A stretch of DNA of 64,000 nucleotides from Myxococcota bacterium (GCA_046351155.1 JAXLYZ010000005.1:43254-107253), one strand, 5' to 3'. Shown: positions 2,014 to 38,214, counted from the stretch's first letter. Numbers and translations: made by a program. The notes: generated from the letters alone by a model not told the origin.

Positions 2014-2115
2014 GGGGGTTCCTCGTGGGGTCGTCGCAGCGCCTGACTACGCCGCCCGGCGCATGCGCACAAGGCGGCCGAGACCCGTCGGCGCGCTCGC
2101 GCGTAGACTGCCGCC

Positions 2116-2853: not shown

Positions 2854-2855
2854 CC

Positions 2856-18724: not shown

Positions 18725-18747
18725 TCGCCGGCGCGCGCGGCGTCGCG

Positions 18748-19137
18748 TCAGTCGGCCTTGGTCGGGCTCGGGGTCGGCGCGGCGGCGGCGGCCATGGTCG
18801 GCTTGGGCATGCCCGGACCGCGACCGCGCGCGGGCGTCGCGCCGCTCGAGACGACCAGGCCGATGACGATGGCGACGGCGCCGAGCCCGATGGCGATCTG
18901 GGCCGGGCGGCGCGTGAGCATCTTCATCAGCGCCTTGCCGTTCTTGATGACGTGGAGGACCGCGGTGGCGACGAAGGCGATGCCGGTGGCGACGTGCAGA
19001 CCGTTGAGCCCGCGGCCGCCGATGCCGAGCGCCATGGCCAGGCCGGTGAGGCCGACGCCGACGAAGGAGATGGCGGTGAGGGCGGTGGCGAAGCGCGCCA
19101 CGAGGGACTTCGGGGTCAGGTTCGACGAGGGCGACAT
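18748..19137 (-). CDS. Small integral membrane protein, hypothetical
   Basis: Three hydrophobic helices (LVARFATALTAISFVGVGLTGLAMALGI; ATGIAFVATAVLHVI; IAIGLGAVAIVIGLVV). Confidence 0.45.
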   Translation of the reverse strand: MSPSSNLTPKSLVARFATALTAISFVGVGLTGLAMALGIGGRGLNGLHVATGIAFVATAVLHVIKNGKALMKMLTRRPAQIAIGLGAVAIVIGLVVSSGATPARGRGPGMPKPTMAAAAAPTPSPTKAD

Positions 19138-19246
19138 CTGCGGGCTCCGGGAGTGGGTCACGCGATCGTCGACCGCGCCGGGCGGCTTCTATTCGGCGGC
19201 AGACAAAGGCGTGACAATTCGAAGGTGTCGTCATTACTGAGGGTTT

Positions 19247-21711: not shown

Positions 21712-24700
21712 TCACAGCCTGACGGTCCACGCGCCGACCACCTCGCCGCTGGTCAGGCTCACGGCGCGGACGCGGCCGTCGCGGCTGAAGGCGGTGAGGA
21801 TCGGGCCGAGGCGGCAGTCGACGCGCTCGGCGCCCTCGAAGCGCAGGCTGGCCAGCGTCAGCGCCGGCTGCACGGTGCGCACGCGGCGCACCAGGATCGA
21901 CGGCGGGCTCGCGACGACCTCGGCCACGAGCTTGCCGTCGAGCGGGGTCGTCACCGTGAGCGGCGTCATGGGGTGGTCGGCGCTCCGGCCCTGGCGCTCG
22001 AAGCGGAAGCTCGGCAGCTCGAAGCGCCAGTGGAGGTCGGGCGCGACGGCGACGCTGAGGTGGTCGGGGTGGCGCTCGAGGCCGGTGATCGGGCCGCCGA
22101 GGTCGCTCACGTACCAGGTCGCCTCGGGCGGCGTGGAGTGGACGTCGAGCGCCGTCACGCTGGTCGCGTCGGCCAGGATGAGCTGCCGGCCATCGAAGGT
22201 GCGCGCCACGGCGCGCGCCGGCAGCGTCTGCCACGGGATGGCGACGCGCCGCTCGAGGTCGAGGCGGGCGATGCGCGCCAGCGCGCCGCGAAGGCCACCG
22301 CCGCCGCGGCCTGGCCGTGGTCGGCGACGACGAGCTGGTGGGCGGGCTCGGTCATGTGCGCCAGGCGGCGGCCGCGGCGATCGAGCAGCAGCACGCCCAG
22401 CTCGCCCAGCGCGACGAGCAGGCGCTGGCCCGGCAGCGCGGCGGCGTCGAGCACGGACAGCGGCCCGCGCTCGCTCGACGGCACGTCGATGACCAGCGGC
22501 GCGCGCGCCGAGCGAGCGCTGCGCCCGCGGCAGCGGCGGCAGGTCGGCGGCGAAGCTCTGGTCGAAGCGCGCGCGCTGGATCACGTCGCGCACGAGCTCG
22601 GGCCGGAGGTCGCCGCGCAGCACGTCGCCCAGCAGGACGCGCGCGGCCGCGTCGGCCAGGCGCTCGAGGCGCGGGTGCGGCGCGACCTGGCGCAGGCGCT
22701 CGGCCAGGATGCCGCGGGCGGTCGCGTCGGGGTCGTCGCGCAGCGCGGCCAGCGCGGCCAGCGCCTCGGGCTCGCGCGCCGGCGCCACCTCGAGCAGCTT
22801 CGGCAGGACGGCCGCCGCGCTCGGGCCGCCGAGCGCCAGCGCGCGCTCGATCCACGGCAGCGCCAGCGGGCGCTGCGCGGCGGGCAGGGGCCAGTAGATG
22901 TCGAGCGCGCGCACGACGTCGCCGGTCGCGGCGATGGACTCGGCCCAGGCGCTGCGCAGCGCGGCGGCGCGCGGGTCCTTCTCGCGCTCGAGGCGGCTCA
23001 GCGCGGCCGCGAAGGCGCCCTTCTGCACGGCGAAGGCGACGGCGCGATCGCGCTCGCCGGCGCGCATGAGGGCGATGACGACGAGGCTCGGCTCGAGCTG
23101 CTCGCCGCCGCCATGGTCGCCGCCAGCTCGAAGCGCTCGTGCTTCACGAGCAGCTCGTAGGCCTCGAGCGGCCGCTCGAGCAGCTCGGCGTGGACGAACG
23201 CAGCCTCGTCGACGCGACCCTCGGCCATCAGGCGATTGAGCATGACGCCGTAGCGATCGCGCAGGTGCTGGAACAGCTCGGGGACGACGCCGAGGCTGGC
23301 CTGGCCGCCGGCGCCGGGCACGCTGTAGGTCAGCGCCGTGCGCGGGCTCGGCGCGCGCGCGCGTCAGCGGCCCGGCGGCGCCCGGCGTGGTGTGGAGCGG
23401 GATGGCGTGGCGCAGCGCGGCGTCGAGGTCGCCGCGATCGAGCATGCCGAGCAGATCGCCGAGGTAGCGCGAGGCGGCGCGGCCGAAGAGCGAGCCGATA
23501 CCGGCGCGCACGGCGAGGCGCTCGAGCCAGCGCGAGATGCGCCCGAAGAGACCGACGCGCGCGGTCGGCGCGGGCGCGGCGAGGGTTCGACCGGACGCGA
23601 CGCCGGCCGGGTCGCGCGACGGCCTCCGAAGAGGCGGCGCAGCGCCTGCGCGAAGCGGCCGGGGCGGCGCGGCGGCGTCTTCAGCGCGCGGGCGACCTCG
23701 TCGCGCGCGGCGGCCAGCTCGAACGAGGGGCCGAGGTATTGTTGCGGCGTCAGCGGCCGCGCGACGGCGAGCGCGGGCAGGCGCGGCTCCGGCCCGAGCG
23801 GCGCGACCGATGCGACGGGGACGGCGGCGAGATCGATCCACGCCACCGGATCGAGCGCGCGCGCCTCGGCCAGCGGCGTCGCGGCAATGGCGCCGCCCAT
23901 GACCGCAACCAGCGCCGCCGGGCGCGGCTCCGGGCCGAGCACCTGCGCCAGCTCGGCGGCCTCGAGCGGCGCGGCCAGGAGGTCGGCGCCGCGGCGCACC
24001 AGCACGAGCCCGGGCGCGCCGGCGCACGACATGCGCCGCGGCGCGTCGAAGACCAGCAGCACGCCCCACGGCGTCCGGGCCACGCGGTCGCCCATGCCCC
24101 ACAGGCCGAGCGCGCGCCTCGGCGTCGACCTGGAGGACCAGACCGGCGGCGACGACCGAGCCGCGATGCAGCACCTGGCGCGGCGTGGCTCGGCTCACGC
24201 GCCGTCCTTCGCGCCTGTCGCGAGCGTGACCAGGTTCGCGCCGCTGACGATGTCGACGACGGCGATCTCGCCGCTCTCGGCGCGCCAGGCGAGGTGGCCG
24301 AAGGCGCGGCTGACGCACGCCGAGGCGACCGGGCGCGGCGCGCGCGCGATCTCCTTCACGCCGTCGGGCAGGAGGTGCGAGGCCTGCCGCCGCTCCGCGT
24401 CGAGCACGACCAGCCCGAGCACGGGCGACGACGGCGCGGCGCGGGCCAGGCCGATGACCTCGCAGCCTTCGGCCAGCGACACGCCCCGCGGCGCGCGCGC
24501 CGCGTCGAAGAGGGTCCACGCCCGCGCGCCGGTCTCGACCGCGACCGCGCCGGACGCGTGGCCGGCCGCGTCCGGCCCGAAGAACACGCGCGCGCCGGGC
24601 GCGAAGTCGAAGACCGCCAGCTCCATCGGCGCGGCCGGCGCCGCGTCCGGGTCCCCAGTCCTTGGGCAGGAGCAGCAGGCGGCCGCGGCCCGCGCCGAGC

Positions 24701-25956
24701 GCGGCCGAGGTGCCGACGCAGACGATGCCGTCGCGCCGGACGGCGAAGGCGTGGATGGTGTCGGAGTGGTTGCGCGTGCCGAGGGTCGGCGCGTGCGACC
24801 AGGCCACCAGGCGCCCGAGGCCGTCGAGCGTCATCCAGCGCAGGTGGAGGTAGCCGGCCTGGCCCACGCCCTCGACGCGAAAGGGCAGGCCATCGATGGC
24901 CGCCACGGCCTCGCGCGGCGGGTGGAGGTGGGGCGCGCCGCGGGACGACGCGAGGACGTGCGCCCCGCGCAGGGCGAAGGCCGCGAGCACGCGACCGATG
25001 GAGCCGACGGCGAAGAGCTCGCCCTCGGGCAGGTGCACGATCAGCGGCTTGCCCGCCTTGATGGCCGCCGAGTGCGGCACGTGGAAGGCGGTGAGCTTGT
25101 CGGCGCTGCGCACGAGCAGCCGGTGGCCGTCGCCGGAGAACATCGGCGCGCCGATCGCGGCATCGCGCGCGCGCTTGGCGTTGGGCTGCGGGGTCGTGCC
25201 CGGGTCGCCGAGGAGCGCCGCGCCGGACCAGTCCGACGGCAGGCTCAGCGCCACGCCGCGGCTCGCTGCCCCCTTGCGCGTGACCTCGACGCGCAGCTCG
25301 CGCTCGCCGCTCGCGACGCTGATGGCGTGCGCGCCGATGGCCGCGGCGCGGGTCGGCGTGTCGACGTCGCCGACCAGCCACAGCTCGCCGGCCCCGTGCT
25401 CCAGGGCGCGCGCCCGGGCGCGCGCGACGTCGGCGAGGACGAGCTGACGCAGGCTGCGCGCGGCGAGCAGCGCGCGGGCGTCGAGCCGCTCGTCGAGCGC
25501 GTCGCGCTCCGACTGGAGGACGCCCCAGGCGAAGCGCGCGCCGGCCTCGCGCGCGCGGCGACCGAGCGCGACCAGCAGCGCGACGTGGGCGAGGCGCATG
25601 ACGCCGAGCTGGCTCGGGCCGACGTCGAAGAGCACGGCCGTGGCGCGCCCACCGCTCGGCGCGCGGCGCTGCAGCTCGAGGAAGGTGTGCTCGCTGGCGG
25701 CGGCGCGGCGCAGGAACTCGTCGGGCAGCTCGTCGGCCAGGAGCCACTCGCTGGACAGCAGGCGCTGGTACGGCCCGCGCCGCGCCAGGCCGCCGAAGCC
25801 GTCCGGCTCACCGCTGCCCGGCGGTGGCGAGCCGCCGAGCGGACCGAGCGCGTGCAGCAGCCGGTCGAGCCACGGCGTGATGGCGCGGGCCAGCGCCTCG
25901 GGCACGAGCGCCAGGCTGTCGGCCCAGCGCGAGACCGGCTGACCGAGGCGCGTCAT
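21712..25956 (-). pseudogene. Large gene(s) downstream of the RavA-like ATPase, disrupted by multiple frameshifts (degenerate VWA-like N-terminus, beta-propeller-like and helical-repeat segments)
   Basis: Starts at ATG 25956, overlapping the upstream stop (ATGA). Protein-like sequence runs 25956 to about 24650 in one frame. It continues 24626-24195 in a second frame ending in a stop, then 24095 to about 23620 in a third frame. The rest is islands of protein-like sequence in the long-ORF frame (about 23130-22480 and 22270-21712), separated by Arg-rich out-of-frame stretches. Confidence 0.5.
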
Positions 25957-26363
25957 CGGGCCTGCCGCCAGGCTTCGAGCGCGGCCGCGCTCAGGCGACG
26001 CGCGTGCCCGAGCGGCACCAGCAGCGACGGCTCGGTCAGCAGCGCCACCGGGGTCGAGCCGGCGCGCGCGACCGCGGCGCGCGCGAGCAGCGTCGTCGCG
26101 AACGGCGGCGCCAGCGTCGTCGGCAGGTAGAGCTCGGGGCACAGCGGCTCGCGCCCGAGGTATTCGACGCCGTCGACCCAGGGCAGCGCGTCGCTCGGCC
26201 CCAGCAGCACGATCAGGTCGGCGCCGGCCACGCCCTCGAGGCGCGCGCGCCGCTCGTCGGCGAGCTCCAGCGCGGCCTGGACCAGCGCGCGCGCCACCGC
26301 GCCCCGACCGACGGCGGCCTCGGGTGCGAGCGGCTCGACGCGCGGCACGAGCGCCGGCGTCAT
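25953..26363 (-). CDS. Small hypothetical protein (137 aa), translationally coupled on both sides
   Basis: The ATG overlaps the RavA-like stop (ATGA at 26360-26363), and its own stop overlaps the next ATG (25953-25956). The sequence is protein-like. Confidence 0.45.
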   Translation of the reverse strand: MTPALVPRVEPLAPEAAVGRGAVARALVQAALELADERRARLEGVAGADLIVLLGPSDALPWVDGVEYLGREPLCPELYLPTTLAPPFATTLLARAAVARAGSTPVALLTEPSLLVPLGHARRLSAAALEAWRQAR

Positions 26364-27649
26364 GCGGAATCGCCAAGCACCTTGACGATGCGCGCGCGCA
26401 GCGTCGCGATGGGCGCGGGCCGGGCGTCGGCCGCGAAGCTGGCGTCGATCTCGCGCGCGATGCCCTCCACGCGCAGGCGCCAGGCGCGCAGCGCGTCGCG
26501 GCCGTCGGCGCCGGCCGCGCTCGGGACCTCGGCGAGCAGCGCTTCGCCGAGGCGCGCGATGCGCTCGGCGCGCGCGTGCGGGCCCTGCGAGGCGTCGAGC
26601 GCGGCGGCGGGCAGGGCCGGGTTGTGCGCGTGGGCGAAGACCTCGCGCAGCGCGTCGCGCGCCAGCGCCTGGCCCTCGGCGCTCGGCACCACATAGAGGA
26701 GCGGCCACAGGTCGGCCGGCGTCGGATCGGCTCGGCCGGCCAGCACGGCGGCGGCGGCCGTGAGCGCCTGGGCCTTCACGATGCGCCGATCGGTGAGCGC
26801 GATGCCGGCGTCGCGCAGCGTGCGCACGACCTCGGCCAGACGCGGCCGGAGCGCGCTGGTGTCGGCGACGCGCGCGGCCTCGACCAGCACGTCGATGTCG
26901 GCGACGCTGGCCGGCGGCGGCCCGAGCGCGTCGCGCTGCAGGCTGGCGCCGGCCGCGAGCAGGTCCTCGAGGGCCGGGTCGGGGATGGGCTGCACGAAGA
27001 CGTGGAGCAGGAAGCGATCGGCGAAGGCGGCCAGCGTCGGATCCTCGGGCAGCGCGTTCGACGCGCCGACGCACACGCGCAGCGGGCAGGCGATGTCGCT
27101 GTGGCCGCGGCGGAAGCGGCGCTCGTTGAGGACGCCGAGGAGCGAGTTGAGGATGGCCGTCGAGCCGAGGAACACCTCGTCGAGGAAGGCCAGGTCGGCT
27201 TCGGGCAGCATGCCGTGGGTGTCGGTCTCGACGCGCCCGGCGCGGAGCTTCTGCAGATCGACCGCGCCGAAGATCTCGCTCGGCTCGGTGAAGCGGCCGA
27301 CCAGGTACTCGAAGACGCGGCCGTCGATGCCGCGCGCCACGCGCCGCACCGCCTCGCTCTTGGCGGTCCCGGGCGGGCCGATGACGAGCAGGTGCTCGCG
27401 CGCGACGGCGGCCAGGACCACGAGCTCCACCACCAGCTCGCGCTCGACCAGGCCGCGCGAGGCGCGCTCGATGGCGAGCCGCAGCCGTCGCGACGCATCG
27501 GCCAGGCCCGCGCGCGCGAGACGATTCTCGGGGTCATGGCGGGCGGTCGTGGACATTGGCGCAAGATAGCTGCTATCCGCACAGAGCGCATCCCACGTGT
27601 CGAGGTAGCGAGCCGTCGCGCCACCACCCGGTTTGCTCATGCGCGACAC
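26360..27649 (-). CDS. MoxR-family AAA+ ATPase, RavA-like
   Basis: Walker A LVIGPPGTAKSE. There are blocks closely resembling E. coli RavA: FEYLVGRFTEPSEIFGA against RavA FEYLMTRFSTPEEVFGP, and LPEADLAFLDEVFLGSTAILNSLLGVLNERRF against RavA [32 protein letters not shown]. The start is GTG 27649 or ATG 27640. Confidence 0.8.
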   Translation of the reverse strand: MSRMSKPGGGATARYLDTWDALCADSSYLAPMSTTARHDPENRLARAGLADASRRLRLAIERASRGLVERELVVELVVLAAVAREHLLVIGPPGTAKSEAVRRVARGIDGRVFEYLVGRFTEPSEIFGAVDLQKLRAGRVETDTHGMLPEADLAFLDEVFLGSTAILNSLLGVLNERRFRRGHSDIACPLRVCVGASNALPEDPTLAAFADRFLLHVFVQPIPDPALEDLLAAGASLQRDALGPPPASVADIDVLVEAARVADTSALRPRLAEVVRTLRDAGIALTDRRIVKAQALTAAAAVLAGRADPTPADLWPLLYVVPSAEGQALARDALREVFAHAHNPALPAAALDASQGPHARAERIARLGEALLAEVPSAAGADGRDALRAWRLRVEGIAREIDASFAADARPAPIATLRARIVKVLGDSA

Positions 27650-27699
27650 AACGGGGCAGCTCGATCCTCGATGGATCGGCCTGCCCTCGAGGGGGCCAT
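27650..27699. promoter_or_regulatory. 50-bp divergent intergenic region between the RavA-like operon (minus) and the K/E-rich-protein/kinase/AAA operon (plus)
   Basis: Only about 50 bp separate the two divergent start codons. GAGGGGG lies 5 nt before ATG 27700. Confidence 0.4.
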
Positions 27700-29856
27700 A
27701 TGGTGCTGAAGTCTGCGAAGAAGCTGATCGACAACGTCAGCGGCAAGAAAGACAAGTCGAAGGGCGCTCCGACCACACCGCCGCCGCGGCCGACCACGCC
27801 GGCGCCGACGACGAACAAGCAGGCACCGCCGCGGCCGACCACGCCCGCGCCGACCGACAAGCAGGCGCCGCCGCGACCGACCACGCCGGCGCCCGGTACG
27901 CCGACCGTCGCCCAGGCGCCGAAGGCCTTCGTGAAGGGCGCCAAGCCCGGCACGCCGCAGCCCGAGGGCTCGCAGCTGGGCGCCCAGCGCGCCTGGAAGA
28001 AGACGACGCCGAAGGCGAACGACAAGGCGCCGACCAGCCCCAAGAAGATCGGCGAGAACCGCAAGATCACGAAGGCCCTCGAGAAGCAGGAGTCGAAGAC
28101 GCCGCTGCCGACCGAGGTCAAGGAGAAGGTCGAGGAGGCCAAGGAGGTCGAGAAGGTCGCGCCCGTGGTCGAGAAGGCCAAGCACGAGACCCCGCCGGCC
28201 AACAAGTACAGCGCCTCGGCCTACACGACGACGGTCGCCGACGACGAGGCGAAGAGCCCGTACACGACCACCGTCGACGACGGCGAGAGCCCGCTGCGCC
28301 AGAGCCAGGGCAAGGTCGGCGCCTACAGCTCCGAGCAGAAAGACGCCGAGGACGACATGTCCTCCCAGGACGACGTCTCGTCCGACGCGCTCGAGGTCCA
28401 GGGGCTCGACCCCAACCGCTACGCGGCCGTGCAGCACAGCGACGTGGCCACGTTCTCGTCGTCCGACGACGGCTTCGTGAGCGAAGAGGAGACGAGCTCG
28501 AGCGGCGAGGTCGGCGCCCCGATGCAGATCCCCAAGGCCCAGCTGCTGATGCGCATCAAGGCGGCCAAGGTCGCCAAGCTGCGCGCCGACCGGGCCAAGG
28601 AGAAGGAGGCCGAGAAGGCCAAGCAGGAGGACGAGGCCAAGCAGAAGAGCAACGAGACGCCGAAGGAGGAGGTCAAGGAGGAGGTGAAGGAGGATGCGCC
28701 GCCCACCAACTACGGCTCGGCCACCAACTACGCCTCGGCCAGCAGCTACACCATGACCGGCTCGGACTCCATGGCCCACTACGGCAACCGGTACAGCAGC
28801 ATATCGAGCGACGACGAGCCCGACCTGTCGTCGACCGGCTTCCGCACCGACGACATGAGCGCGCACACCGCCGAGATCGACATGGCCTCCGACCTCGAGG
28901 ACGCCGCGGCGGCCATCCCCAACGTCCAGGAGCGCCACACCGCCTCGAAGAACCCCGAGGTGAAGGCCATGCAGCAGAAGCTGCGCGACGGCCGGCGCAA
29001 CCTGAAGGACGCCCCCGAGGTCGTGAACGACTCGGTGACCGGGCAGCACATCGCCACCAACCAGATCGAGCGCGAGCGCATGAGCTCGAACGAGCGCAAG
29101 TCCGAGGGCTGGGCGCTGCTCGGCATGCGCACCGAGCACCGCGAGCAGGACCTCGGCAAGAAGGGCGGCCGCTGGGACGTCAAGTACGCGCTCTCCGAGT
29201 TCGCCGAGATCGAGGCCGGCGTCGAGCAGCTGCTGGGCGACAAGCTCCGCACCGGGCGCGAGGAGATGCTGTGCGAGGTCTACGGCGGTCGCCTCGTCGA
29301 CGTGGCGGGCCGCGGCGTCGACACCTCGAGCGCCGGCGTCAGCGGACAGGCGCAGCACGATCGCACCGACAAGCTGCGCGAGAAGATCGAGAAGGCCAAG
29401 CAGGCCGGCTTCGGCGACAAGGTCGCCAAGCTCGAGAAGAAGCTCGACACCGCCGTCAAGGACCCGCGCAAGGACAAGAGCATCTCGGGCCGCTTCATCT
29501 ACGTGATGAACGCCAGCGGGCAGTTCTTCGCCTGCAAGCCCGAGCTCTACAAGGTCCACCACTCGGCCATGCTGGCGGGCGGCGCGGTCGCGTGCGCCGG
29601 CGAGATGCTGGTGTCGGGCGGCACCATCCAGGCCATCAACAACTCGAGCGGCCACTACCGGCCGGGGCCGGCCTTCCTGTGGCAGGCCGTGAAGCAGCTC
29701 GAGATGAGCGGCGCGTCGATGGGCTTCCAGGTCGAGTGCGCGGCCGTGACGCGCAAGTTCAAGACCGGCACCGACTTCCTGAGCGCCATGGATCCGACGA
29801 CCGACGCCAAGCTCTTCGACGGCGTCTACGCCGTGAAGAAGCTGAACGCCCGATGA
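27700..29856 (+). CDS. K/E/P/T-rich intrinsically disordered protein with an unrecognised C-terminal globular domain (about 130 aa)
   Basis: 718 aa with no signal peptide. It has three 11-aa PT repeats (APPRPTTPAPT), charged K/E blocks (KAAKVAKLRADRAKEKEAEKAKQEDEAKQK) and a Y/S/N-rich segment. The C-terminal segment is GRFIYVMNASGQFFACKPELYKVHHSAMLAGGAVACAGEMLVSGGTIQAINNSSGHYRPGPAFLW. Codon usage is native-like (AAG/GAG). The stop overlaps the next ATG (ATGA). Confidence 0.65.
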   Translation: MVLKSAKKLIDNVSGKKDKSKGAPTTPPPRPTTPAPTTNKQAPPRPTTPAPTDKQAPPRPTTPAPGTPTVAQAPKAFVKGAKPGTPQPEGSQLGAQRAWKKTTPKANDKAPTSPKKIGENRKITKALEKQESKTPLPTEVKEKVEEAKEVEKVAPVVEKAKHETPPANKYSASAYTTTVADDEAKSPYTTTVDDGESPLRQSQGKVGAYSSEQKDAEDDMSSQDDVSSDALEVQGLDPNRYAAVQHSDVATFSSSDDGFVSEEETSSSGEVGAPMQIPKAQLLMRIKAAKVAKLRADRAKEKEAEKAKQEDEAKQKSNETPKEEVKEEVKEDAPPTNYGSATNYASASSYTMTGSDSMAHYGNRYSSISSDDEPDLSSTGFRTDDMSAHTAEIDMASDLEDAAAAIPNVQERHTASKNPEVKAMQQKLRDGRRNLKDAPEVVNDSVTGQHIATNQIERERMSSNERKSEGWALLGMRTEHREQDLGKKGGRWDVKYALSEFAEIEAGVEQLLGDKLRTGREEMLCEVYGGRLVDVAGRGVDTSSAGVSGQAQHDRTDKLREKIEKAKQAGFGDKVAKLEKKLDTAVKDPRKDKSISGRFIYVMNASGQFFACKPELYKVHHSAMLAGGAVACAGEMLVSGGTIQAINNSSGHYRPGPAFLWQAVKQLEMSGASMGFQVECAAVTRKFKTGTDFLSAMDPTTDAKLFDGVYAVKKLNAR
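27775..27900. repeat. Coding 33-bp tandem repeat, 3 copies (encoding PPRPTTPAPT[TD]KQA)
   Basis: ccgccgcggccgaccacgccggcgccgac... is repeated three times with minor variation. Confidence 0.55.
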
Positions 29857-30371
29857 GCGACCTCGCAGCCGCGGTCGGCCGCGCCGCCGATCTCGTGGGA
29901 CGCATCGTCGACGACCCCACCGAGCACGGCCTGGCCGCGGCGGTGGCGGCCGATCCGGGGTCGCTCGACGCGCTCTTCGCGGTGCTGCGCGACCGCTTCG
30001 TCGAGCGCGGCGAGGGCTTCGGCGACCTCGAGGGCGACGACACCTTCTGGCGCATCATCGCCATCGCGCTGACGACGTGGGCGCCGGCGCTGCGCGAGCG
30101 CTTCGCCGCCGAGGTGCTGTTCAAGGCCGCGGCGCCCGACGCGTATCGCTGGATCGCGCCGCTGGCGCGCGCGCTCTATCGCGCCGACGCGGCCGAGCGG
30201 CTGGTGCTGGCGGCCGTCGAGCGCGGCGACGCGGCGACGCGCGTGAACGCGTCGCACCTGGCGTACTACCTCTTCGACGGCTCGCCCGAGTACGCCCTGT
30301 CGGACATCGGGGCGCGTCGCCTCGCCGATGCGGACCCGCTCCGCTCGCCGCGGGCGGCGGACGGTGACTGA
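29853..30371 (+). CDS. Hypothetical helical protein (172 aa), translationally coupled
   Basis: The ATG overlaps the upstream stop. The protein is protein-like with no known motif. Its stop TGA overlaps the GTG 30364 start candidate of the kinase. Confidence 0.55.
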   Translation: MSDLAAAVGRAADLVGRIVDDPTEHGLAAAVAADPGSLDALFAVLRDRFVERGEGFGDLEGDDTFWRIIAIALTTWAPALRERFAAEVLFKAAAPDAYRWIAPLARALYRADAAERLVLAAVERGDAATRVNASHLAYYLFDGSPEYALSDIGARRLADADPLRSPRAADGD

Positions 30372-33342
30372 CCTGCCCTACGAGCTGGGCCCGCTCATCG
30401 GGCACGGCGGACAGGCGGATGTGCACGCGGCGACCGAGCCCATGACGGGCGCGCCGCTGGCCGTGAAGGTGCAGCACCTCTCGGCCAATCGCCACGCCGG
30501 GCCGAGCCTGCTGCGCGAGTACCAGCTGCTGCGCGAGATCGATCATCCGGCCTTCGCCGTGGCGCACGCCGCCGGTCGGCTGGCCGACGGTCGCGTGTGG
30601 CTCGCCATGCAGCGGCTCGACGGCGTGGCCGCGGCCGACTGGGCGCGCGGCCTCGGCCCGCCCGCCACGCGCCACCGCACGCGGCGCGTGCTCGAGCGCA
30701 TGGTGGCCATCGCCGACGCGGTGGCCTACCTGCACCGGCAGGGCGTGGTCCACGGCGACCTCAAGCCCGGCAACATCCTCGTCGCGGCCGACGGCTCGCC
30801 GCGCATCCTCGATCTCGGCGGCGTCCACTTCGACCCGGGCCTGGCCCCGGGCGCGCGCGGCATGTTCCGCACGGTGCCGTACGCCTCGCCCGAGCAGCTC
30901 GACAAGGGCGTCCTGGCGGCGAGCGCCGACGTGTTCTCGCTGGCCGCGACGTGCGTGCGGCTCCTGAGCGACGAGCATCCCTTCGGGGCCGGTGCCAAGG
31001 ACGCGGTGCGCGCGCGCCAGGGCGCGGCGAGCGCGGCGAGCGCGGCGCTCGATCGCTCGGGGCCGCTGTCCGAGGCTACGCGCGCGCTGCTCCTGCGCTG
31101 CTTGAGCGTCGAGCCCGCCGCGCGGCCGTGCGACGCCGGTGCGCTGCGCGACGCGCTGCGCGCGCGCCTGCCGACGCCGGTGGCCTGGCCGACGGCCGAG
31201 CCGCGCGCGGCCAGCCAGGCCGAGGCGCTGGGTACGCTGCGGGCGCTGCTGGTCGACGCGCCCGGCCTCGCGCCGGTGGCGCTCATCGGGCGCCCCGGTG
31301 GCGCCGCGGCGCTGCTCGCGCAGCTCGCGCTGGATGCGGCCGCGCTCGGTGCGAGCGTGCTCGAGGTCGGCGGCGACGCGCCCGAGCGCCTGCGCGACGC
31401 GCTCGACGCGCTGCTCGAGGGCGCGACGCCGACCAGCGAGGCGCCGCAGCTGGTGGTGCTCATGCGCCGCGCGGAGCGCTTCCCGGCGAGCGACCGCCGC
31501 GCGCTCGAGGTGCGCCTGGCCACGCTGGTCGAGCGCGGCTGGCGCGTGGCCCTGGTCGCGGCCACCCACGAGGCCGGGATGGCCCACGTCGCGCGCTGGC
31601 TGCATCGGCCGACGGCGATCCGACTCGCGCCCGAGGCCTCGGTCGAGGTCGACGAGCCCGAGGCGGAGGCGGAGACGAACGAGCCGGCGTGGCCGGGCGA
31701 CGCGCAGCTGGCGGCGATCCTCGAGGCCACCGCGCTGGTCGCGGCCAGCCCCGACGGCCGCGCCGACCTGGCCACGCTGGCGTCCGGGCTCGCGCTGACG
31801 CCGGCCGCGGTGCGGCGCGGGCTCGATCGACTGGCGCGCCACGGCTGGGTGCGCGGCGACGCCGACGGCGGCTGGGCGTTGGCCGAGCCCGAGCTGCGGC
31901 GCACGTTGCACCGACACGGCGAGGGCCGCGCGGCGCTGGCCGAGCGCCTCGCCAACGAGTGGGAGGTCGAGCCGCACGCGCTCGGCCGCGCCAACTGCCT
32001 GCTCGTCGCCGGGCGCGTGGTGGCCGCGGCCGACAACGCCGCGCGCTGGGCACGGGCCGCGCTGCGCCACGACGACGTCGCGCGCGTGGCCGACGGCCTC
32101 GACCGGCTCGGCGCGCTCGACGACGCGCTCGAGCCCGGCGCGGCGCGCACCTCGTGGCTGCTGTTGCGGGCGCGCACGGCCGCGCTCGCCGACTGCACCG
32201 ACCCGCGCGTCGCCGGATGGCTCGCCGAGCTCGGCGCCCGCGCCGAGACGCGCGAGGCCCAGCGCGCCGACGAGCTGGCCGCGGTCGTCGCCGGCTGGCG
32301 CGGCGAGCCGCCCGAGCGCGCGCTGGTGCTGGCCCAGCGCGAGCTCGACCAGGGCCGCTACGAGCGCGCGCTGGCGCTGGCGCGCGGCGAGGTGAGCCAG
32401 GCCCACGAGGCCGGCGCGCTCGACGTCGCGGCGCGCGCGGCGCTCGTCGCCGGACAGGCGCTGGCGGCGCTCGGCCGCCTCGAGGAGGCGGCGCGCGCGC
32501 TGGCCGACGCGGCCGACGGCTGGCCTGATGCGCCCGGCGCGGGCGCCGTCGCGTACGAGCGCGCCGAGGTGCTGGCGGCGCTCGGGCGCTGGGGCGAGGC
32601 CGGGCGCGTCCTGGCGCGCGCGCACGCCCGAGCGACGACGCCGTGGGATCGCGCCGCGACCGCCATCGGCGCGGCCGCGCGGGCCACCGATCGCGGCCAT
32701 GCGCGCGGCGCGCTGGCGCTGCTCGAGGCGCTCGCCGCCGAGCCGTTCGTCGCGCGCCACCCGCGCCTCCAGCTCGGCTGGCACGTCGAGCGCCTGCGCG
32801 CCATCGCGCTGCACGGCAGCGACGACGCGCTCGCCGCGGCGCGCGCCGCCGAGCCGGTCGTGGCCGAGCTCATGCGCGCCGGTCGCCGCGCACACGCGGC
32901 GCGCCTCGGCGCCTGGCAGGCGGCCGCGGCCTGGACGGCCGGCGACCATCAGACGCCGAGCACCGAGGCGAGCGGCCTCGCGACGTGGGCCGCCAGCATC
33001 CTGGGCGAGCTCGGCCATCGCCTGTGGTGGGCCGAGGCCGCCACCGTCGACGTGTGGCTCGCGCGTAGCCAGGGCGGCGACGCGCGCATGCCGCCGGCGC
33101 TCGTCGCGCAGCTGACGGAGGCCGAGGCGTGGCCGCTGGCGATGCGCGCGGCGCTGGCCGAGGGCGACGTGCAGCGGGCGTGGGGCGCGGCCGAGATGTT
33201 CCTGGCGCACGTCGACAGCGCCGGCGCGATCGCGCTCGAGCTGATGCCGTGGGCGGTGCGGGCGCGCGCGCTCACGGCCGAGGCGGCACACCACGCGAGC
33301 CTGGCGAGCACGTCGAGCACGTCGAGCACGGAGGACGGCTGA
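30328..33342 (+). CDS. Ser/Thr protein kinase fused to STAND-like NTPase (degenerate P-loop), winged helix and TPR-like repeats
   Basis: Hanks kinase motifs GHGGQADVH, AVK, HGDLKPGNIL, DLGG and VPYASPEQ. They are followed by ALIGRPGGAAALLAQ (a P-loop lacking Lys), LVVLM (Walker B-like) and a long Ala/Leu-rich helical repeat region. Start is ATG 30328 or, more likely, GTG 30364. Confidence 0.85.
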   Translation: MRTRSARRGRRTVTDLPYELGPLIGHGGQADVHAATEPMTGAPLAVKVQHLSANRHAGPSLLREYQLLREIDHPAFAVAHAAGRLADGRVWLAMQRLDGVAAADWARGLGPPATRHRTRRVLERMVAIADAVAYLHRQGVVHGDLKPGNILVAADGSPRILDLGGVHFDPGLAPGARGMFRTVPYASPEQLDKGVLAASADVFSLAATCVRLLSDEHPFGAGAKDAVRARQGAASAASAALDRSGPLSEATRALLLRCLSVEPAARPCDAGALRDALRARLPTPVAWPTAEPRAASQAEALGTLRALLVDAPGLAPVALIGRPGGAAALLAQLALDAAALGASVLEVGGDAPERLRDALDALLEGATPTSEAPQLVVLMRRAERFPASDRRALEVRLATLVERGWRVALVAATHEAGMAHVARWLHRPTAIRLAPEASVEVDEPEAEAETNEPAWPGDAQLAAILEATALVAASPDGRADLATLASGLALTPAAVRRGLDRLARHGWVRGDADGGWALAEPELRRTLHRHGEGRAALAERLANEWEVEPHALGRANCLLVAGRVVAAADNAARWARAALRHDDVARVADGLDRLGALDDALEPGAARTSWLLLRARTAALADCTDPRVAGWLAELGARAETREAQRADELAAVVAGWRGEPPERALVLAQRELDQGRYERALALARGEVSQAHEAGALDVAARAALVAGQALAALGRLEEAARALADAADGWPDAPGAGAVAYERAEVLAALGRWGEAGRVLARAHARATTPWDRAATAIGAAARATDRGHARGALALLEALAAEPFVARHPRLQLGWHVERLRAIALHGSDDALAAARAAEPVVAELMRAGRRAHAARLGAWQAAAAWTAGDHQTPSTEASGLATWAASILGELGHRLWWAEAATVDVWLARSQGGDARMPPALVAQLTEAEAWPLAMRAALAEGDVQRAWGAAEMFLAHVDSAGAIALELMPWAVRARALTAEAAHHASLASTSSTSSTEDG

Positions 33343-35516
33343 TGGCGAACCGCGCGCTGGAGGATCTGGCCGAGCGACACCTCGACGCCGAGCTCGGCTG
33401 GCGGCGCGTGGCGCTCGACGTCCACAGCGCCCGCGTGATGCGCGCGCGCAGCGTCGGCCTCGGCCGCGGCCAGCTCGAGCCCGACGAGGTCGAGGCGCTG
33501 GTCGACGCCGCGCGCCGCCGCGACGAGCTGGTGGCCGACCTGGCCGCCGGCGACGAGAAGCCGCCGCTGGTGCTGCTCGCCGAGCGGCTCGGCCTGAACG
33601 ACGACGATCGGCTCCTGTGGGCCGCGGCCATCGGCGCCGAGGTCGACCCGGCCATCGCGCGCCGCTTCGCGCAGCTCGACGATCACGGCGCGCGCTGGCC
33701 GACGCTGGCCACGCTCATCGAGACGGTCATCGAGCCGCGGCGCCGCCTGCAGGTGCGCGGCCGCCTCGAGCCGTGGTCGCCGCTCGTGCGCTACGAGCTC
33801 CTCGTGGTCGACCCGCGCTTCGGCCTCGACGCCAGCGGGCCGCTGCGGCCGTCGACGCGGCTCGTGCGCCTGGCGCGCGGCGAGATGGGGCTCGACCCGT
33901 CGATGGAGTCGTACGGCGCGCTGTGGACCGCGCCCGATCCGCGGCCGATGGCGCTGTCGGACAAGGCGCGCGAGAAGTTCGAGTGGTTCGCCAAGGGCTT
34001 TCGCACGCTGCGCGCGGGCGGCTCGCAGCCGCTGTGGATCCTGAAGGGCCCGGTCGGCGTCGGGCGCACGCGCTGGGTGCGCGAGGCGGCGGCGGCGTGC
34101 GGCTGGTCGACGCTGGCCATCGACCTCGCCGGCGCGGCGGCCTGGAACACGCGCGACGACGGCAGCCACGCGGCGGTGCTGGCCGAGGCCATGCGCGAGG
34201 CGCGGCTCCAGGACGCGGTGCTGGTGCTGCGCGGCTGGGACACGCTGGTCGACGGCTCGCTGACCTCGAGCGGCGGCGGCGGCGAGGACGAGTCGTCGAT
34301 CGGCGAGAAGTCGGCCGAGCTGGTGCGGCGCATGTCGGTAGGCCTCGAGCAGAGCCTGCGCGAGCACCCGCTGCCGGTGACGCTGGTGGTCGGCCCGAGC
34401 TTCGACGAGCTGCCCGACGTGCAGCGCGGGCTCTCGCTCATCGAGGTGCCGATGCCCGACGCCGCCGCCTCGAACGCGCTGTGGGCGCGCGCGGCCGGGC
34501 CCGGCACGCTGGCCGACGGCGTTACGCCGCAGCAGCTGACCGAGGCCTTCCGGCTGACGCCGGGCGAGATCGAGGCGGTGGCGACGGCGTGCGAGCGCGT
34601 GGCGCGCGTGGCCGAGAAGGGCGTCACCGTCGACGAGGTGCGCGCCGAGGTGAAGACGTTCCTGCGCCATCGGCTGCGCCAGATCGCCACGCTGGTCGAG
34701 CACCGCTACGACTGGCCGCAGCTCATCTGCCCGAGCTCGGTGGTCATCAACCTCCGGAGCCTGGTCGACCGCTACCGCATGCGCCACAAGGTCATGGTCG
34801 ACTGGAAGATGGGCGAGCGCTTCGGCGAGGCGCGCGGCATCAGCGTCCTCTTCGAGGGCCCGCCCGGCACCGGCAAGACCATGGCCGCCAACATCATCGC
34901 GCGCGAGCTCGGCCTCGACCTCTTCCAGGTCGACCTCTCGAAGGTGATGAGCAAGTACATCGGCGAGACCGAGAAGCACCTCGGCATGCTCTTCGACGAG
35001 GCCGAGCGCGCCCAGGCGCTCATCCTCTTCGACGAGGCCGACAGCCTCTTCGCCAAGCGCACCGAGGTGAAGGACTCGCACGACCGCCACGCCAACCTGA
35101 AGGTCAACTTCCTTTTGCAACGCATCGAGCGCTTCAGCGGCCTGGCCATCCTGACGACCAACCTGGCCGAGAGCATCGACGAGGCGTTCGGCCGGCGCGT
35201 CACGGTGCGCGTGCACTTCCCGAAGCCCGAGCTCGACATGCGCGTCCTGCTCTGGAAGAGCATGCTCGACGGCCTGCCGCAGGCGGTCGACGACGCCGAC
35301 ATCGCCGACCTGGCCAAGGAGTTCGAGCTCACCGGCGGCCTCATCCGCAACGCCGTCCTGCGCGCGGCCTTCTTCGCCGCCTCGGCCGATCGGCCCATCG
35401 ACTACCGCCTGCTCGAGATCGCCACGCGCATGGAGCAGAAGAACCAGTCGATGCTCTTGCGCGGCGACCCGATGCAGGACCTGATGCAGACCATGCAGCA
35501 GGACGAGTCGGGATGA
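33342..35516 (+). CDS. Tandem AAA+ ATPase (N-terminal degenerate module, C-terminal classic-clade AAA)
   Basis: The C-terminal module has Walker A GPPGTGKT, Walker B ILFDEADSL and an SRH-like region (TTNLAESIDEAFGRR). The N-terminal module has GPVGVGRT with Arg replacing Lys. The ATG overlaps the kinase stop (TGATG). Confidence 0.85.
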   Translation: MANRALEDLAERHLDAELGWRRVALDVHSARVMRARSVGLGRGQLEPDEVEALVDAARRRDELVADLAAGDEKPPLVLLAERLGLNDDDRLLWAAAIGAEVDPAIARRFAQLDDHGARWPTLATLIETVIEPRRRLQVRGRLEPWSPLVRYELLVVDPRFGLDASGPLRPSTRLVRLARGEMGLDPSMESYGALWTAPDPRPMALSDKAREKFEWFAKGFRTLRAGGSQPLWILKGPVGVGRTRWVREAAAACGWSTLAIDLAGAAAWNTRDDGSHAAVLAEAMREARLQDAVLVLRGWDTLVDGSLTSSGGGGEDESSIGEKSAELVRRMSVGLEQSLREHPLPVTLVVGPSFDELPDVQRGLSLIEVPMPDAAASNALWARAAGPGTLADGVTPQQLTEAFRLTPGEIEAVATACERVARVAEKGVTVDEVRAEVKTFLRHRLRQIATLVEHRYDWPQLICPSSVVINLRSLVDRYRMRHKVMVDWKMGERFGEARGISVLFEGPPGTGKTMAANIIARELGLDLFQVDLSKVMSKYIGETEKHLGMLFDEAERAQALILFDEADSLFAKRTEVKDSHDRHANLKVNFLLQRIERFSGLAILTTNLAESIDEAFGRRVTVRVHFPKPELDMRVLLWKSMLDGLPQAVDDADIADLAKEFELTGGLIRNAVLRAAFFAASADRPIDYRLLEIATRMEQKNQSMLLRGDPMQDLMQTMQQDESG

Positions 35517-35567
35517 CGCTACGGCTCCGGCCGCCGGCGACGCCCTGAATTTGTCACATTAAGCGTG

Positions 35568-36692
35568 TCACATTCCCGGCAGCCGCTCGAGCCGCAGCGT
35601 GGTCGTCAGCGTCCGGTCGACGAGGTTCCCGACCAGCGCGCTGCCGTTCGGGTACATGGTGCCGTGCAGCCGGTGCGACGCGCCGTCGGGGCCCTCCAGC
35701 GCCACGTCGAGCGCGAACGACTGGGCCGCGAAGGTGAAGAGCGCGACCGGATCGCCGATGCGGTAGCCGCAGCCGCCGCAGTCGCCGGGCGTGAAGGTGA
35801 AGCCGAAGTCGGGCGGAAAATAGCCGGCGGCGGCGTCCAGCGGAATCTGCCAATCTCCGCCGTCCAGCGTCCCGCGGTAGTGGCCCTGCAGGTTGCCGGG
35901 CGACGTCACCAGGCAGAAGCCCTCGACCGGGAACAGCCCGGGCGTCGCGCCGCGCCCCCACACCACGTAGCGCAGGCCGGCGATGAGCGGCGAGCAGTCC
36001 CACGGCGCGCCCGCGTCGCAGGTATCGACCCGGCACCCGAGGTCGGGGACGGCCGGCGTCGCCACCAGCCGGAGCGCGCCCGACGCCGTGATCGGGCCGA
36101 GCGCCACGTCCTCGCGGCACGTGCACGCCTCGGCCTCGGAGCACGGCGCCGTCGCGCTCTCGATCGGCGTCGGCACGCCGCCGGCCGTGCCGTAGCCATC
36201 CCACTCCGGCGCGAGGAGGAAGCGGCCGCTCTGGAACTGGCCGCGGCCGCACATGTACTGGCACAGCGGCTGGCTCTCGTAGACGCAGGCGTGCTCGACG
36301 CAGCGCTCGACGGTGCAGTCGTTGCCGTCGTCGCAGCCGAGGCTGAGGCCGTCCTCGCACTGCTGGCAGCCGTTGGCGAAGGTGTGCCGGCAGCGCTGGA
36401 AGCCGCAGCCGTCGATGACGCAGGCGTCGTCGGTGCAGGCGTTGTGGTCGTCGCAGTGGAGGTCGGTGCGGCACGCGTTGGCGGCGTCCTCCGGCACGAA
36501 GACGCAGCGGTCGGCGACCTGGTCGCAGCGGTCCTCGGTGCACGGATCGCCGTCGTCGCACGGCAGCCCGCCGGTCTCGGGGTCGCGCTCGAGGCAGAAC
36601 GGCGTCGCGAGGTCGTCGCCGCCGCAGCCGACCAGCGCGGCCAGCCCGGCGAGGGCGCCGCGCGCGCAGAAGACCACCAGGGCGCGGCGCAT
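35568..36692 (-). CDS. Lipoprotein with myxobacterial-type Cys-rich repeats
   Basis: Lipobox LVGCGG. Repeated DxxxCTxDxC modules (DGDPCTEDRCD, DHNACTDDACV, DGNDCTVERCV). Confidence 0.65.
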   Translation of the reverse strand: MRRALVVFCARGALAGLAALVGCGGDDLATPFCLERDPETGGLPCDDGDPCTEDRCDQVADRCVFVPEDAANACRTDLHCDDHNACTDDACVIDGCGFQRCRHTFANGCQQCEDGLSLGCDDGNDCTVERCVEHACVYESQPLCQYMCGRGQFQSGRFLLAPEWDGYGTAGGVPTPIESATAPCSEAEACTCREDVALGPITASGALRLVATPAVPDLGCRVDTCDAGAPWDCSPLIAGLRYVVWGRGATPGLFPVEGFCLVTSPGNLQGHYRGTLDGGDWQIPLDAAAGYFPPDFGFTFTPGDCGGCGYRIGDPVALFTFAAQSFALDVALEGPDGASHRLHGTMYPNGSALVGNLVDRTLTTTLRLERLPGM

Positions 36693-36701
36693 GCCGGCGC
36701 C

Positions 36702-37712
36702 TCAGGGCACGACGCGCAGCGTGCTCACGAGCTGCTGCAGCCGGTCGCGCTCGGCCACGGTCGGGGCGGCGCAGAACGCGTGCACGCGCAGCGACGGCTG
36801 CAGCGGATGGTCGACCATGGCCTCGGTGGTCGTGCCGCCGCCGTCGCCCCACTGGTGCCACGCCGTCGCGACGCCGATGAGCACGCCCATGACGGTCGTC
36901 ACCTTGTCGGCCGGGATGTCGCGCTGGCTGTGCTGGTAGCTCGGGTGCCCGCCGAGATAGATGCCGCACAGCGGCTGCGGCTGGCCCAGCGTCACCACCT
37001 GGCGGATGCGGTAGACCGAGAAGTCGGGGCCGTCCTGCGTGGCGGTGACGAAGCCCGGTGGCAGCGTCAGCACGAGCTTGTCCTTGCCGGCGCCGGCGAA
37101 GGCCACCTCGCCGCCGCCCAGCGCCAGGGCGCGCTTGCCGGCCTCGAGCGTGCCGACCACGGCGCGCGCCAGCGCCACCCAGCGCGCCGCGTCCTGCAAG
37201 CCCTCGGGGCTCACGTAGAAGGCGATGAGCTCGACCGTGCCGTCGGCCTGCTTGACGTAGGCCTCGTAGATGACGTTGCCGTCGCGCGGCGGGCTCGGCG
37301 GCGGCGGCGTGACCGCCAGCGCGCTCAGCGGCGCCGCCACCGTCGGCGTCTCGAGCGCCGGCGGCGCGGCCATGCCGCCGGCCGCGAGGTCGGCCTTCAC
37401 GGCGGCCGCGAAGTCGTCGCCGGCGCGCGTGTAGAGCTCCCACACCATCATCACCAGGCGCACGTCGCCCTTGTCGACGACGGCGCGCGTCTCGTCCTCC
37501 TGGGCCGCGTCGGCCGCCATCAGGCTGTGGCCGCGCGCCTCGACCTTCATGCCCTCGGCCAGGCGCACGCTGAGCCGCCCGCCGAGGAGCGGCGTGCGCG
37601 CGGCCGCGAGCGCCGGGTCGGCCGGCGCGGCGGCGCGCGTCAGCGGATCGACGGTGAGCGTGGCGACGACAGCGACGACAGCGACGACAGCGACAGCGAG
37701 CGAGCGGAGCAT
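36702..37712 (-). CDS. Secreted hypothetical protein
   Basis: Signal peptide MLRSLAVAVVAVVAVVATLTV, encoded by a 9-bp tandem repeat. The body is protein-like. Confidence 0.55.
   Translation of the reverse strand: MLRSLAVAVVAVVAVVATLTVDPLTRAAAPADPALAAARTPLLGGRLSVRLAEGMKVEARGHSLMAADAAQEDETRAVVDKGDVRLVMMVWELYTRAGDDFAAAVKADLAAGGMAAPPALETPTVAAPLSALAVTPPPPSPPRDGNVIYEAYVKQADGTVELIAFYVSPEGLQDAARWVALARAVVGTLEAGKRALALGGGEVAFAGAGKDKLVLTLPPGFVTATQDGPDFSVYRIRQVVTLGQPQPLCGIYLGGHPSYQHSQRDIPADKVTTVMGVLIGVATAWHQWGDGGGTTTEAMVDHPLQPSLRVHAFCAAPTVAERDRLQQLVSTLRVVP
37662..37704. repeat. Coding 9-bp tandem repeat (GTCGCTGTC)n encoding (VAV)n in a signal peptide
   Basis: gcgacgacagcgacgacagcgacgacagcgacagcgag on the plus strand. 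Confidence 0.55.
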
Positions 37713-37758
37713 GCTCCGGTCGTAGTCGATGGACCGCGCGAAGACAACCGCCGCGCGC

Positions 37759-38214
37759 TCACGACGTCGGCGCGCCGGCCAGGGCGGTGCGCACGCGCGC
37801 GAGCAGCTCGCGCTGCGGGATGTCCATCCAGTCGTGGGCGATGCTGCCGACGAGGCAGCGCTCGGTGTCGACGTCGAGGTGGCTCCGGATGAGGCCGAGC
37901 AGCCGCGGCGGCGCCACCACGATGAGCTCCTCGAACTCGTGCTCGACGCGCCCGCTCCGGGCCGCCGCGGCGAGCTCGCGCGCGAAGCTCTCGATCTCGA
38001 CGCGGTGGGGATCGGTGTGGCGCTCGAACGAGCTGTGCGCGCCGCCAGGACCCGCGGTCATCGAGCCGCGCGGGCCGGAGACGAGGTCGTGGGTCTCGAT
38101 CCGGCTCGCCGGATGGACATGGGACTGGACGGGCTCGAGCACATCGTGGACGGCATCGGTCGCGAAGATCTGGGCCCGACCGGCATCTGCCACCATCAGC
38201 CATTGCGTCCTCAT
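37759..38214 (-). CDS. Host-attachment-protein-like (Hap family) protein
   Basis: Start MRTQWLMVADAGRAQIF is preceded by GGAGGT. The N-terminus resembles the Hap family consensus (WVLVADGxRARIF). About 151 aa. Confidence 0.5.
   Translation of the reverse strand: MRTQWLMVADAGRAQIFATDAVHDVLEPVQSHVHPASRIETHDLVSGPRGSMTAGPGGAHSSFERHTDPHRVEIESFARELAAAARSGRVEHEFEELIVVAPPRLLGLIRSHLDVDTERCLVGSIAHDWMDIPQRELLARVRTALAGAPTS

Follow-up and report, generated by a model that had tools for sequence, protein, structure and literature searches.

The question raised by this locus is whether four consecutive plus-strand genes, here named g1 to g4, are inherited as one unit and, if so, what such a unit would do. 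They lie in a 64,000-nucleotide stretch of a Myxococcota bacterium genome (GCA_046351155.1 JAXLYZ010000005.1:43254-107253), hereafter the window, and encode a long protein with a disordered N-terminal region (g1), a small helical protein (g2), a protein kinase (g3) and a tandem AAA+ ATPase (g4). Our data point to a conserved module whose ATPase is related to the cargo loaders of extracellular contractile injection systems (eCIS) and whose first gene resembles a cargo ending in a toxin-like domain, and we tentatively favour a role in kinase-gated toxin handling. The window has a GC content of about 75%, so that raw lists of open reading frames (ORFs) are crowded with spurious frames, and the genes were called from a frame analysis of GC at third codon positions (GC3) together with translations:

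27700-29856, plus strand: g1, 718 amino acids (aa), ATG start with GAGGGGG upstream
29853-30371, plus strand: g2, 172 aa
30364-33342, plus strand: g3, 992 aa, GTG start
33342-35516, plus strand: g4, 724 aa

The original prediction had described overlapping stop and start codons at all three junctions of these genes, and each overlap could be read directly from the sequence: g1 and g2 share an ATGA at 29853-29856, the GTG of g3 at 30364 falls within g2, 8 nt before its end (TGA at 30369-30371), and g3 and g4 meet in a TGATG at 33340-33344 with GGAGGA just upstream. The operon start that it had placed at 27640 has to be corrected, as g1 begins at 27700. A search of the plus strand from 27300 to 35800 for terminator-like sites returned none. 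Both g1 (MFO0744489.1, U1F43_02305) and g2 (U1F43_02310) are annotated by NCBI as hypothetical proteins of the same Myxococcota metagenome-assembled genome (MAG), g1 on a 377-kb contig.

In order to find related loci, we followed the contigs of proteins retrieved by an exhaustive profile search with the g1 C-terminus, and L097-L100 were added by a metagenome scan (L numbers are our labels for loci). The genes for the g1-like, g2-like, kinase and winged-helix AAA proteins are colinear with the window in L008, L013 and L014, as is the module of L100; in L009-L011 the kinase and ATPase have changed places, the ATPase of L098 is found 4.3 kb downstream on the opposite strand, and the short contig L015 holds the g1-like and g2-like pair only. 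Orthologues of g1 head the module in L008, L009, L013, L014, L015 and L097-L100. Identity to the window genes ranges from 32 to 49% for the C-terminal part of g1, 33 to 62% for g2, 30 to 50% for g3 and 40 to 79% for g4, the closest relative of the window module being L014. In L008, L013, L014 and L015, too, neighbouring genes overlap or have no more than 15 nt between them, and because such junctions recur in related loci we judge them to be more than chance. The flanking genes are different at every module locus. As metagenomic contigs of six or more diverged lineages carry the same four genes, with changes of gene order among them, the neighbourhood is conserved, which agrees with the earlier proposal of a unit and indicates that the four genes are one real, co-inherited module. 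As in the original prediction, no named operon was recognised: Pfam, NCBIfam, PADLOC and literature searches place them in no named system. Across a collection with a single genome for each species, a scan found no close orthologue of the module, the best ATPase being 38% identical; the module is known from the Myxococcota MAG and from high-GC metagenomic contigs. A phage origin was rejected, given that no relatives were found in viral contigs.

Some of these loci show additional features. L009 carries a fifth co-directional gene after the kinase (18493-19185, 230 aa, no family), which has no counterpart in the window. L098 and L099 are 98.7% identical over about 5 kb, from g1 through g2 to the kinase, and then diverge completely, only L098 having an ATPase (convergent, 4.3 kb away); this divergence reflects either strain variation or an assembly chimera. 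The 4-kb contig L005 has a g1-like/g2-like pair with no kinase or ATPase directly after it. Downstream of this pair, at 1719-3308, it encodes a 529-aa protein with the motif LSMDHVEVHHNSAQ, reminiscent of eCIS_core, for which no Pfam match was found, leaving the suspected eCIS_core unconfirmed.

An indication of what the module handles comes from g4, which comprises the following domains:

33486-33815, plus strand: winged-helix domain PF22977 (Pfam E = 1.8e-10), also present in the module ATPases of L008 and L009
34047-34070, plus strand: degenerate Walker A of the first AAA module (D1), GPVGVGRT, with Lys replaced by Arg
34845-35222, plus strand: second AAA module (D2), of the classic clade (GPPGTGKT, pore loop SKYIGETEK, DEAD; PF00004, E = 7.5e-31)

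This organization matches the earlier description of g4 as a classic-clade AAA+ ATPase with an inactive-looking first module. The Walker A Arg of D1 is found in nine out of nine module ATPases and the D2 motifs are invariant across them; the best solved relatives of D2 are VAT, p97 and Cdc48. In Pvc15, D1 is inactive and carries the same Lys to Arg substitution, while D2 has the DEAD motif and a Lys-Tyr pore loop (PMC11495950), so that g4 shares with the eCIS loader ATPases (Afp15 of the Serratia antifeeding prophage (Afp), Pvc15 of the Photorhabdus virulence cassette (PVC) and Alg15 of AlgoCIS) the N-terminal domain, the Arg-bearing degenerate D1 and a D2 predicted to be active. When the N-terminal 493 aa of g4 were compared by tblastn with 72,556 plasmids, the sole match was the ATPase in the eCIS cluster of Rhodococcus plasmid pWB1, which adjoins genes for Pvc16, sheath, tube, LysM, gpD, VgrG, PAAR and gp25 and is 33.6% identical to g4 over its full length (E = 1e-72). 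For 45 of the 80 best genomic relatives of g4, taken from the scan of one genome per species, a marker screen found one or more eCIS structural markers (sheath, tube, Pvc16 or others) within 10 kb, and Afp15-like ATPases are core eCIS components (PMC6899500). From the full-length homology, the eCIS-linked relatives and the shared D1/D2 architecture, we therefore assign g4 to the Afp15/Pvc15 family of eCIS ATPases, an assignment made by sequence and architecture and not by context. A rough neighbour-joining tree places the module ATPases in a monophyletic group, and nearest to them are other myxobacterial ATPases with no eCIS genes within 10 kb.

Such orphan ATPases were also found next to large putative effectors. 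In L021 (9373-16850) and L064 (9356-15621) the ATPase is followed by a protein of 1,400-1,700 residues with an eCIS_core/DUF4157 domain, and in L023 (3-11524) by one that exceeds 3,300 residues and carries a calpain-type (calpain C2) protease; the pairing of an ATPase with a large effector, at a distance from particle genes, thus seems to recur among myxobacteria. An N-terminal motif, FL.EN...IG.P.P.EL, is common to the proteins of L021 and L023 and unlike the g1 leader. In a few canonical eCIS clusters (genome loci L019 and L067) a protein kinase gene lies within 10 kb of the ATPase, which hints that kinase control of contractile injection systems could be more general.

If g4 is a loader, g1 is its natural candidate substrate. 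Its features are:

27700-27765, plus strand: Lys-rich N-terminal leader, MVLKSAKKLIDNVSGKKDKSKG
27700-29049, plus strand: disordered N-terminal region, about aa 1-450, predicted by charge-hydropathy, with a GC3 of 0.92 that marks it as coding
[quoted passage not shown]
29473-29853, plus strand: putative core effector domain, aa 592-718
29560-29565, plus strand: core motif H621-S622, within an HHS triplet at 29557-29565
29596-29604, plus strand: near-invariant core motif AG[ED]
29647-29658, plus strand: core motif SGHY

Leaders similar to that of g1 (M.[LF]KS..KK...) are present in L008, L013, L014 and L015, and L100 has KKAFKKVGQKVK, suggesting that the leader may act as a recognition signal. 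Residues 1-450 contain Pro-rich repeats, K/E blocks, acidic Ser clusters and Tyr-containing low-complexity motifs; over residues 1-500 the protein is disordered by charge-hydropathy, with 15% hydrophobic residues and a net charge of about 0, and the N-terminal regions of five g1 orthologues are likewise disordered by the same measure. The original prediction of a disordered, K/E-rich protein thus holds for the disorder and needs amending for the composition, which is that of a P/S/T/K/E/D polyampholyte and not simply K/E-rich; the globular C-terminus that it anticipated was recovered with a pLDDT of 95.5 in a model of the core alone built from a deeper alignment. The whole protein has no match in Pfam, NCBIfam or PADLOC, and the Pfam scan gave no match to PF13699 (eCIS_core/DUF4157). 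It has been reported that eCIS cargo combines a system-specific disordered N-terminal loading region with a variable C-terminal effector, and that an AAA+ ATPase is required for cargo loading, probably via unfolding (PMC11495950; bioRxiv 10.64898/2026.05.27.728243). Since g1 has the same layout, a disordered N-terminal region followed by a folded C-terminal domain, it looks like a cargo in its architecture.

The distribution of the C-terminal domain gives a further clue. The model of aa 521-718 predicts a beta-hairpin, a helical hairpin insert, the core domain and C-terminal helices, and within the core His621, Ser622, Gly641 and the Ser-Gly-His-Tyr stretch at 650-653 are near-invariant over 203 copies; some copies (e.g. 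P0069) do not have the HHS and SGHY motifs. The profile built from the g1 C-terminus (A3) retrieved 8,541 clusters at 50% identity with E < 1e-3. The core domain has no sequence match in Pfam, NCBIfam, PADLOC or PDB, nothing being found in the PDB with either the single sequence or the profile, and RefSeq labels the proteins that carry it as hypothetical. These carriers are varied. In a two-partner secretion (TPS) system, two copies lie near the C-terminus of a 3,101-aa TpsA protein (Fil_haemagg) encoded beside TpsB, with a 111-aa ORF 9 nt further on. On a Nocardia plasmid the domain ends a 502-aa protein encoded after two WXG100 genes and before a 195-aa ORF, a 660-aa Eleftheria protein likewise has it at its C-terminus, with an 86-aa ORF next, and at another locus a domain-bearing gene has a VgrG-like ORF 1.7 kb downstream. 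Two to six copies of the domain are present in giant proteins (P0009, P0013, P0016, P0037 and others), which reach 7,287 aa; the copies in P0009 are regularly spaced about 480 residues apart, which suggests large repeated modules. A C-terminal domain common to proteins with different N-terminal trafficking modules is the hallmark of polymorphic toxins, and because of the TPS, WXG100, VgrG and giant multi-copy contexts we consider that the g1 core looks like a polymorphic-toxin domain.

As for the chemistry of this domain, a fold search with the 198-residue model was dominated by trivial helical-hairpin matches, and the same search with the core-only model gave a single outlier, the 14-kDa phosphohistidine phosphatase PHPT1 of the Janus/Ocnus group. 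The domain could tentatively be a phospho-hydrolase of the PHPT1 type that relies on His621 and the SGHY loop, which we offer as a lead and not as membership: the g1 family showed no signal against PHPT1 in hhalign, Foldseek against the PDB gave no significant match and did not have PHPT1 among its matches, and the domain has no match to Pfam Ocnus and no other sequence or profile similarity to this group. The best Foldseek matches in the PDB were cytidine and blasticidin deaminases (E = 0.19, TM score 0.28), which we rejected since their HxE/PCxxC zinc motifs are absent.

The second gene is always directly downstream of a module-type g1, with codons overlapping or nearly abutting. Its all-helical product has no family match in Pfam, NCBIfam or PADLOC and is rare, with only 3 other word-index homologues among 5.8 billion sequences. 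Orthologues in L005, L008, L014 and L015 share 33-62% identity with it, and weaker copies in L009 and L013 were recognised by the g2 profile. The position of a small ORF directly 3′ of a domain gene is shared by g2 and the 111-, 195- and 86-aa ORFs, which are unrelated in sequence; the stand-alone carriers of about 346 aa have no obvious ORF of this kind. The position of g2 suggests an immunity protein or a chaperone.

The features of the third gene are:

30379-31131, plus strand: kinase domain (catalytic Lys in LAVKV, HGDLKPGN, DLG, SPE)
31288-31476, plus strand: degenerate P-loop GRPGGAAALL, without Lys, and Walker-B-like LVVLMRRAE, aligning with GPLGSGKS of L014
32041-33339, plus strand: Ala/Leu-rich helical-repeat C-terminal region resembling tetratricopeptide repeats (TPR), with weak TPR_16 and ANAPC3 matches

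A kinase is encoded in every module locus long enough to show one, and because the catalytic motifs are conserved in seven out of seven aligned module kinases, g3 is probably an active Ser/Thr kinase. The earlier assignment of g3 as a kinase with a STAND (signal transduction ATPases with numerous domains) module and TPR stands for the kinase (Pkinase, E = 6e-28) and weakly for the TPR (TPR_16, E = 1e-3). The STAND part has no Pfam match in g3, neither to AAA_16 nor to any other family, and lacks the Walker A Lys; it was recognised from the L014 orthologue, which alone has an intact P-loop and shows sub-threshold matches to AAA_16 (E = 9e-5) and nSTAND_NTPase5 (E = 2e-4), the segment being degenerate in the window, L013 and L100. 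A STAND origin is hence reasonable, and judging from these residues the module in g3 is a decayed relic and not an active STAND. The C-terminal region varies in length, orthologous kinases having 629-1014 aa.

Taken together, these observations lead us to favour, at somewhat less than an even chance, a kinase-gated module in which an eCIS-type unfoldase handles the toxin g1. The substrate would be g1, with its Lys-rich leader, some 450 disordered residues and a C-terminal effector domain of an unannotated polymorphic-toxin family; g2, translationally coupled to it, would bind the C-terminal domain as an immunity protein or chaperone and keep the producer safe. A g4 hexamer of the Afp15/Pvc15/Alg15 family, with a structural first ring and an active second ring, would engage the disordered leader and thread or unfold g1, and this threading would strip g2 off and hand g1 to an export or delivery route, most simply, in the version that we favour, a contractile injection particle encoded elsewhere in the genome. 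The kinase could gate this handling by phosphorylating the Ser/Thr/Tyr-rich leader, g2 or g4, its STAND/TPR tail being sensor-like. The original prediction left a defence-like and an effector-handling system side by side; the latter is better supported, by the eCIS type of g4 and the toxin-like domain of g1, and the former rests on generic domain-level PADLOC matches.

Several observations weigh against this reading. We found no eCIS structural markers within the 64-kb window or in the flanks of any module locus, and an eCIS encoded in cis was rejected for all of them. In our sample, eCIS linkage was seen neither for the module ATPases nor for their sister clade, and canonical eCIS clusters encode their own ATPase (PMC6899500); because of these two points, delivery of g1 by a particle is unsupported and the module is possibly autonomous. 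The g1 leader of about 450 residues also looks, in our judgement, longer than PVC cargo signals, which have 50-70 residues (PMC11495950), and our literature searches returned no precedent for a kinase in eCIS cargo loading. Finally, the 111-, 195- and 86-aa downstream ORFs are homologous neither to g2 nor to each other, and the stand-alone domain carriers of about 346 aa have no obvious immunity gene, and for these reasons both the toxicity of the domain and the immunity role of g2 are putative.

The absence of injection-system genes near any module locus, and an ATPase clade never linked to eCIS, would also be expected of an autonomous intracellular conflict system acting by abortive infection or stress suicide, in which the kinase-STAND-TPR protein acts as the sensor of an invader or of stress, the AAA+ ATPase removes g2 or unfolds an autoinhibitory leader, and the toxin is freed inside the producer without export. 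A pair of genes for a toxin and its neutraliser is compatible with such a system, as are the sensor-like tail of g3, the adjoining predicted conflict system described below and the PADLOC matches of the kinase (PD-T4-6, Mad6, MkoA) and the ATPase (IetA, TRIP13). However, these matches to anti-phage systems (PD-T4-6/Stk2-like kinases, IetAS, Mokosh and MADS) cover only the generic kinase and AAA cores, partners such as the IetS protease are absent, and g1 and g2 are unmatched; moreover, of the four module kinases with a STAND P-loop, three have it in a decayed form, and the conflict-system neighbour is not conserved. The g1 domain is found elsewhere in exported toxins (TPS, WXG100-linked and VgrG-linked), no relative was found in viral contigs, and a long disordered leader with a conserved N-terminal tip is more typical of a targeting signal. 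We regard intracellular suicide as unlikely, while still a serious contender. A bolder variant, which we find rather doubtful, is a self-contained kinase-gated toxin machine that has abandoned the particle: myxobacterial Afp15-like unfoldases would activate or export a leader-bearing toxin, the first polymorphic toxin of the phosphohistidine/phosphoramidate-phosphatase type, which would attack the phosphotransfer signalling of its target.

Alternatively, the module might contain no toxin at all, the g1 domain being a PHPT1-like phosphohistidine/phospholysine phosphatase that acts on the cell's own two-component or phosphotransfer proteins and is paired with a Ser/Thr kinase, while the AAA+ ATPase remodels or turns over g1 as a disordered scaffold and g2 serves as a subunit with a regulatory role. 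Myxococcota typically have kinase-rich signalling, and the stand-alone carriers of about 346 aa, with no adjacent immunity-like gene, fit such a role. A domain that ends TPS and WXG100-linked proteins with a small ORF next to them, and that occurs near a VgrG-like ORF, is more easily understood as a delivered effector, though, and its presence up to six times in giant proteins, an ATPase from a cargo-loading family and a PHPT1 similarity that Foldseek and hhalign did not confirm also count against regulation, which makes this option improbable in our view. As for a fortuitous juxtaposition of unrelated overlapping genes, nothing speaks for it beyond the failure to find a named system, and it is refuted by the co-occurrence of the four families in six or more diverged lineages, where the flanks differ and the gene order has been rearranged, as well as by the monophyly of the module ATPases; we give it next to no chance.

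Taken singly, the parts of the module are of familiar types, namely an ATPase of eCIS, a cargo-like or polymorphic toxin and a kinase of the Hanks type. What the libraries and literature searched do not describe is the combination of the four genes, their detachment from any injection locus and the family of the effector domain; literature queries on the module, on the SGHY motif and on a toxin acting as a phosphohistidine phosphatase returned nothing relevant. Compared with eCIS, the module loci have no sheath, tube, baseplate or Pvc16 genes nearby, their ATPases form a separate clade, a kinase and a dedicated small partner gene are added, and the long g1 leader comes without DUF4157. Compared with polymorphic toxin-immunity systems (CdiA-CT/CdiI; WXG100/LXG proteins of type VII secretion systems (T7SS); VgrG-linked effectors of type VI secretion systems (T6SS)), the g1 domain is likewise C-terminal under varied N-terminal delivery modules and typically has a small ORF directly after its gene, as g2 follows g1. 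However, the N-terminal part of g1 is disordered with no recognisable trafficking domain, its companions are an AAA+ ATPase and a kinase, the small downstream ORFs are mutually non-homologous, and the domain has no Pfam or NCBIfam model. In the T6SS threonine phosphorylation pathway (PpkA/PppA/Fha1), a Ser/Thr kinase gates the activity of a contractile injection machine, which likewise employs an AAA+ ATPase. The resemblance is an analogy with limits, since no forkhead-associated (FHA) protein, phosphatase or T6SS genes are present here.

The way in which eCIS cargo is selected and loaded is an unsolved question of practical importance, as these particles are being engineered for protein delivery, and the module offers a natural minimal system for recognition and unfolding, with one loader ATPase, a cargo with a conserved leader, a partner, a regulator and no particle genes. 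Should the orphan myxobacterial eCIS-type ATPases work without a particle, they would represent a new protein-handling or export route, and the kinase suggests that toxin handling may be gated post-translationally. The g1 domain defines an unannotated family of about 8,500 clusters in TPS, T7SS-like and T6SS-like contexts, and PHPT1-like chemistry, if true, would amount to a new toxin mechanism.

On the other side of g1, a divergent locus is separated from the module by a short intergenic region:

27650-27699, no strand: divergent intergenic region of 50 bp between the bpMoxR start (27649, minus strand) and g1, presumed promoter
26360-27649, minus strand: bpMoxR (PF20030)
25953-26357, minus strand: bpX5 (PF19921)
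23364-24095, minus strand: bpX6 (PF19922)

No sigma-70-like site was found in 27650-27699, which says little for a myxobacterial genome of 75% GC. The neighbour (21712-27649, minus strand) is a MoxR-vWA (von Willebrand factor A)-beta-propeller ternary system, a predicted conflict system. It had been described as RavA-like, which is right as to the MoxR type and should be narrowed to the bpMoxR (PF20030) of the ternary system. A functional link of the module to this divergent locus is not supported: bpMoxR, bpX5 and bpX6 are absent from all other module loci, even from L014, and the MoxR locus was rejected as a part of the module since the linkage is not conserved. Between 26.4 and 21.7 kb the GC3 coding frame switches about seven times inside one ORF of 1,660 codons, where there are either several short genes or large genes that are frameshifted through assembly errors or as pseudogenes. 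At the other end of the module, two minus-strand genes (35568-38057) converge on g4, neither of them conserved beside the module elsewhere; one encodes a 451-aa protein of no family, and the other a Cys-rich protein of 377 aa whose start resembles a signal peptide and which matches the Dictyostelium CTDC repeat below threshold.

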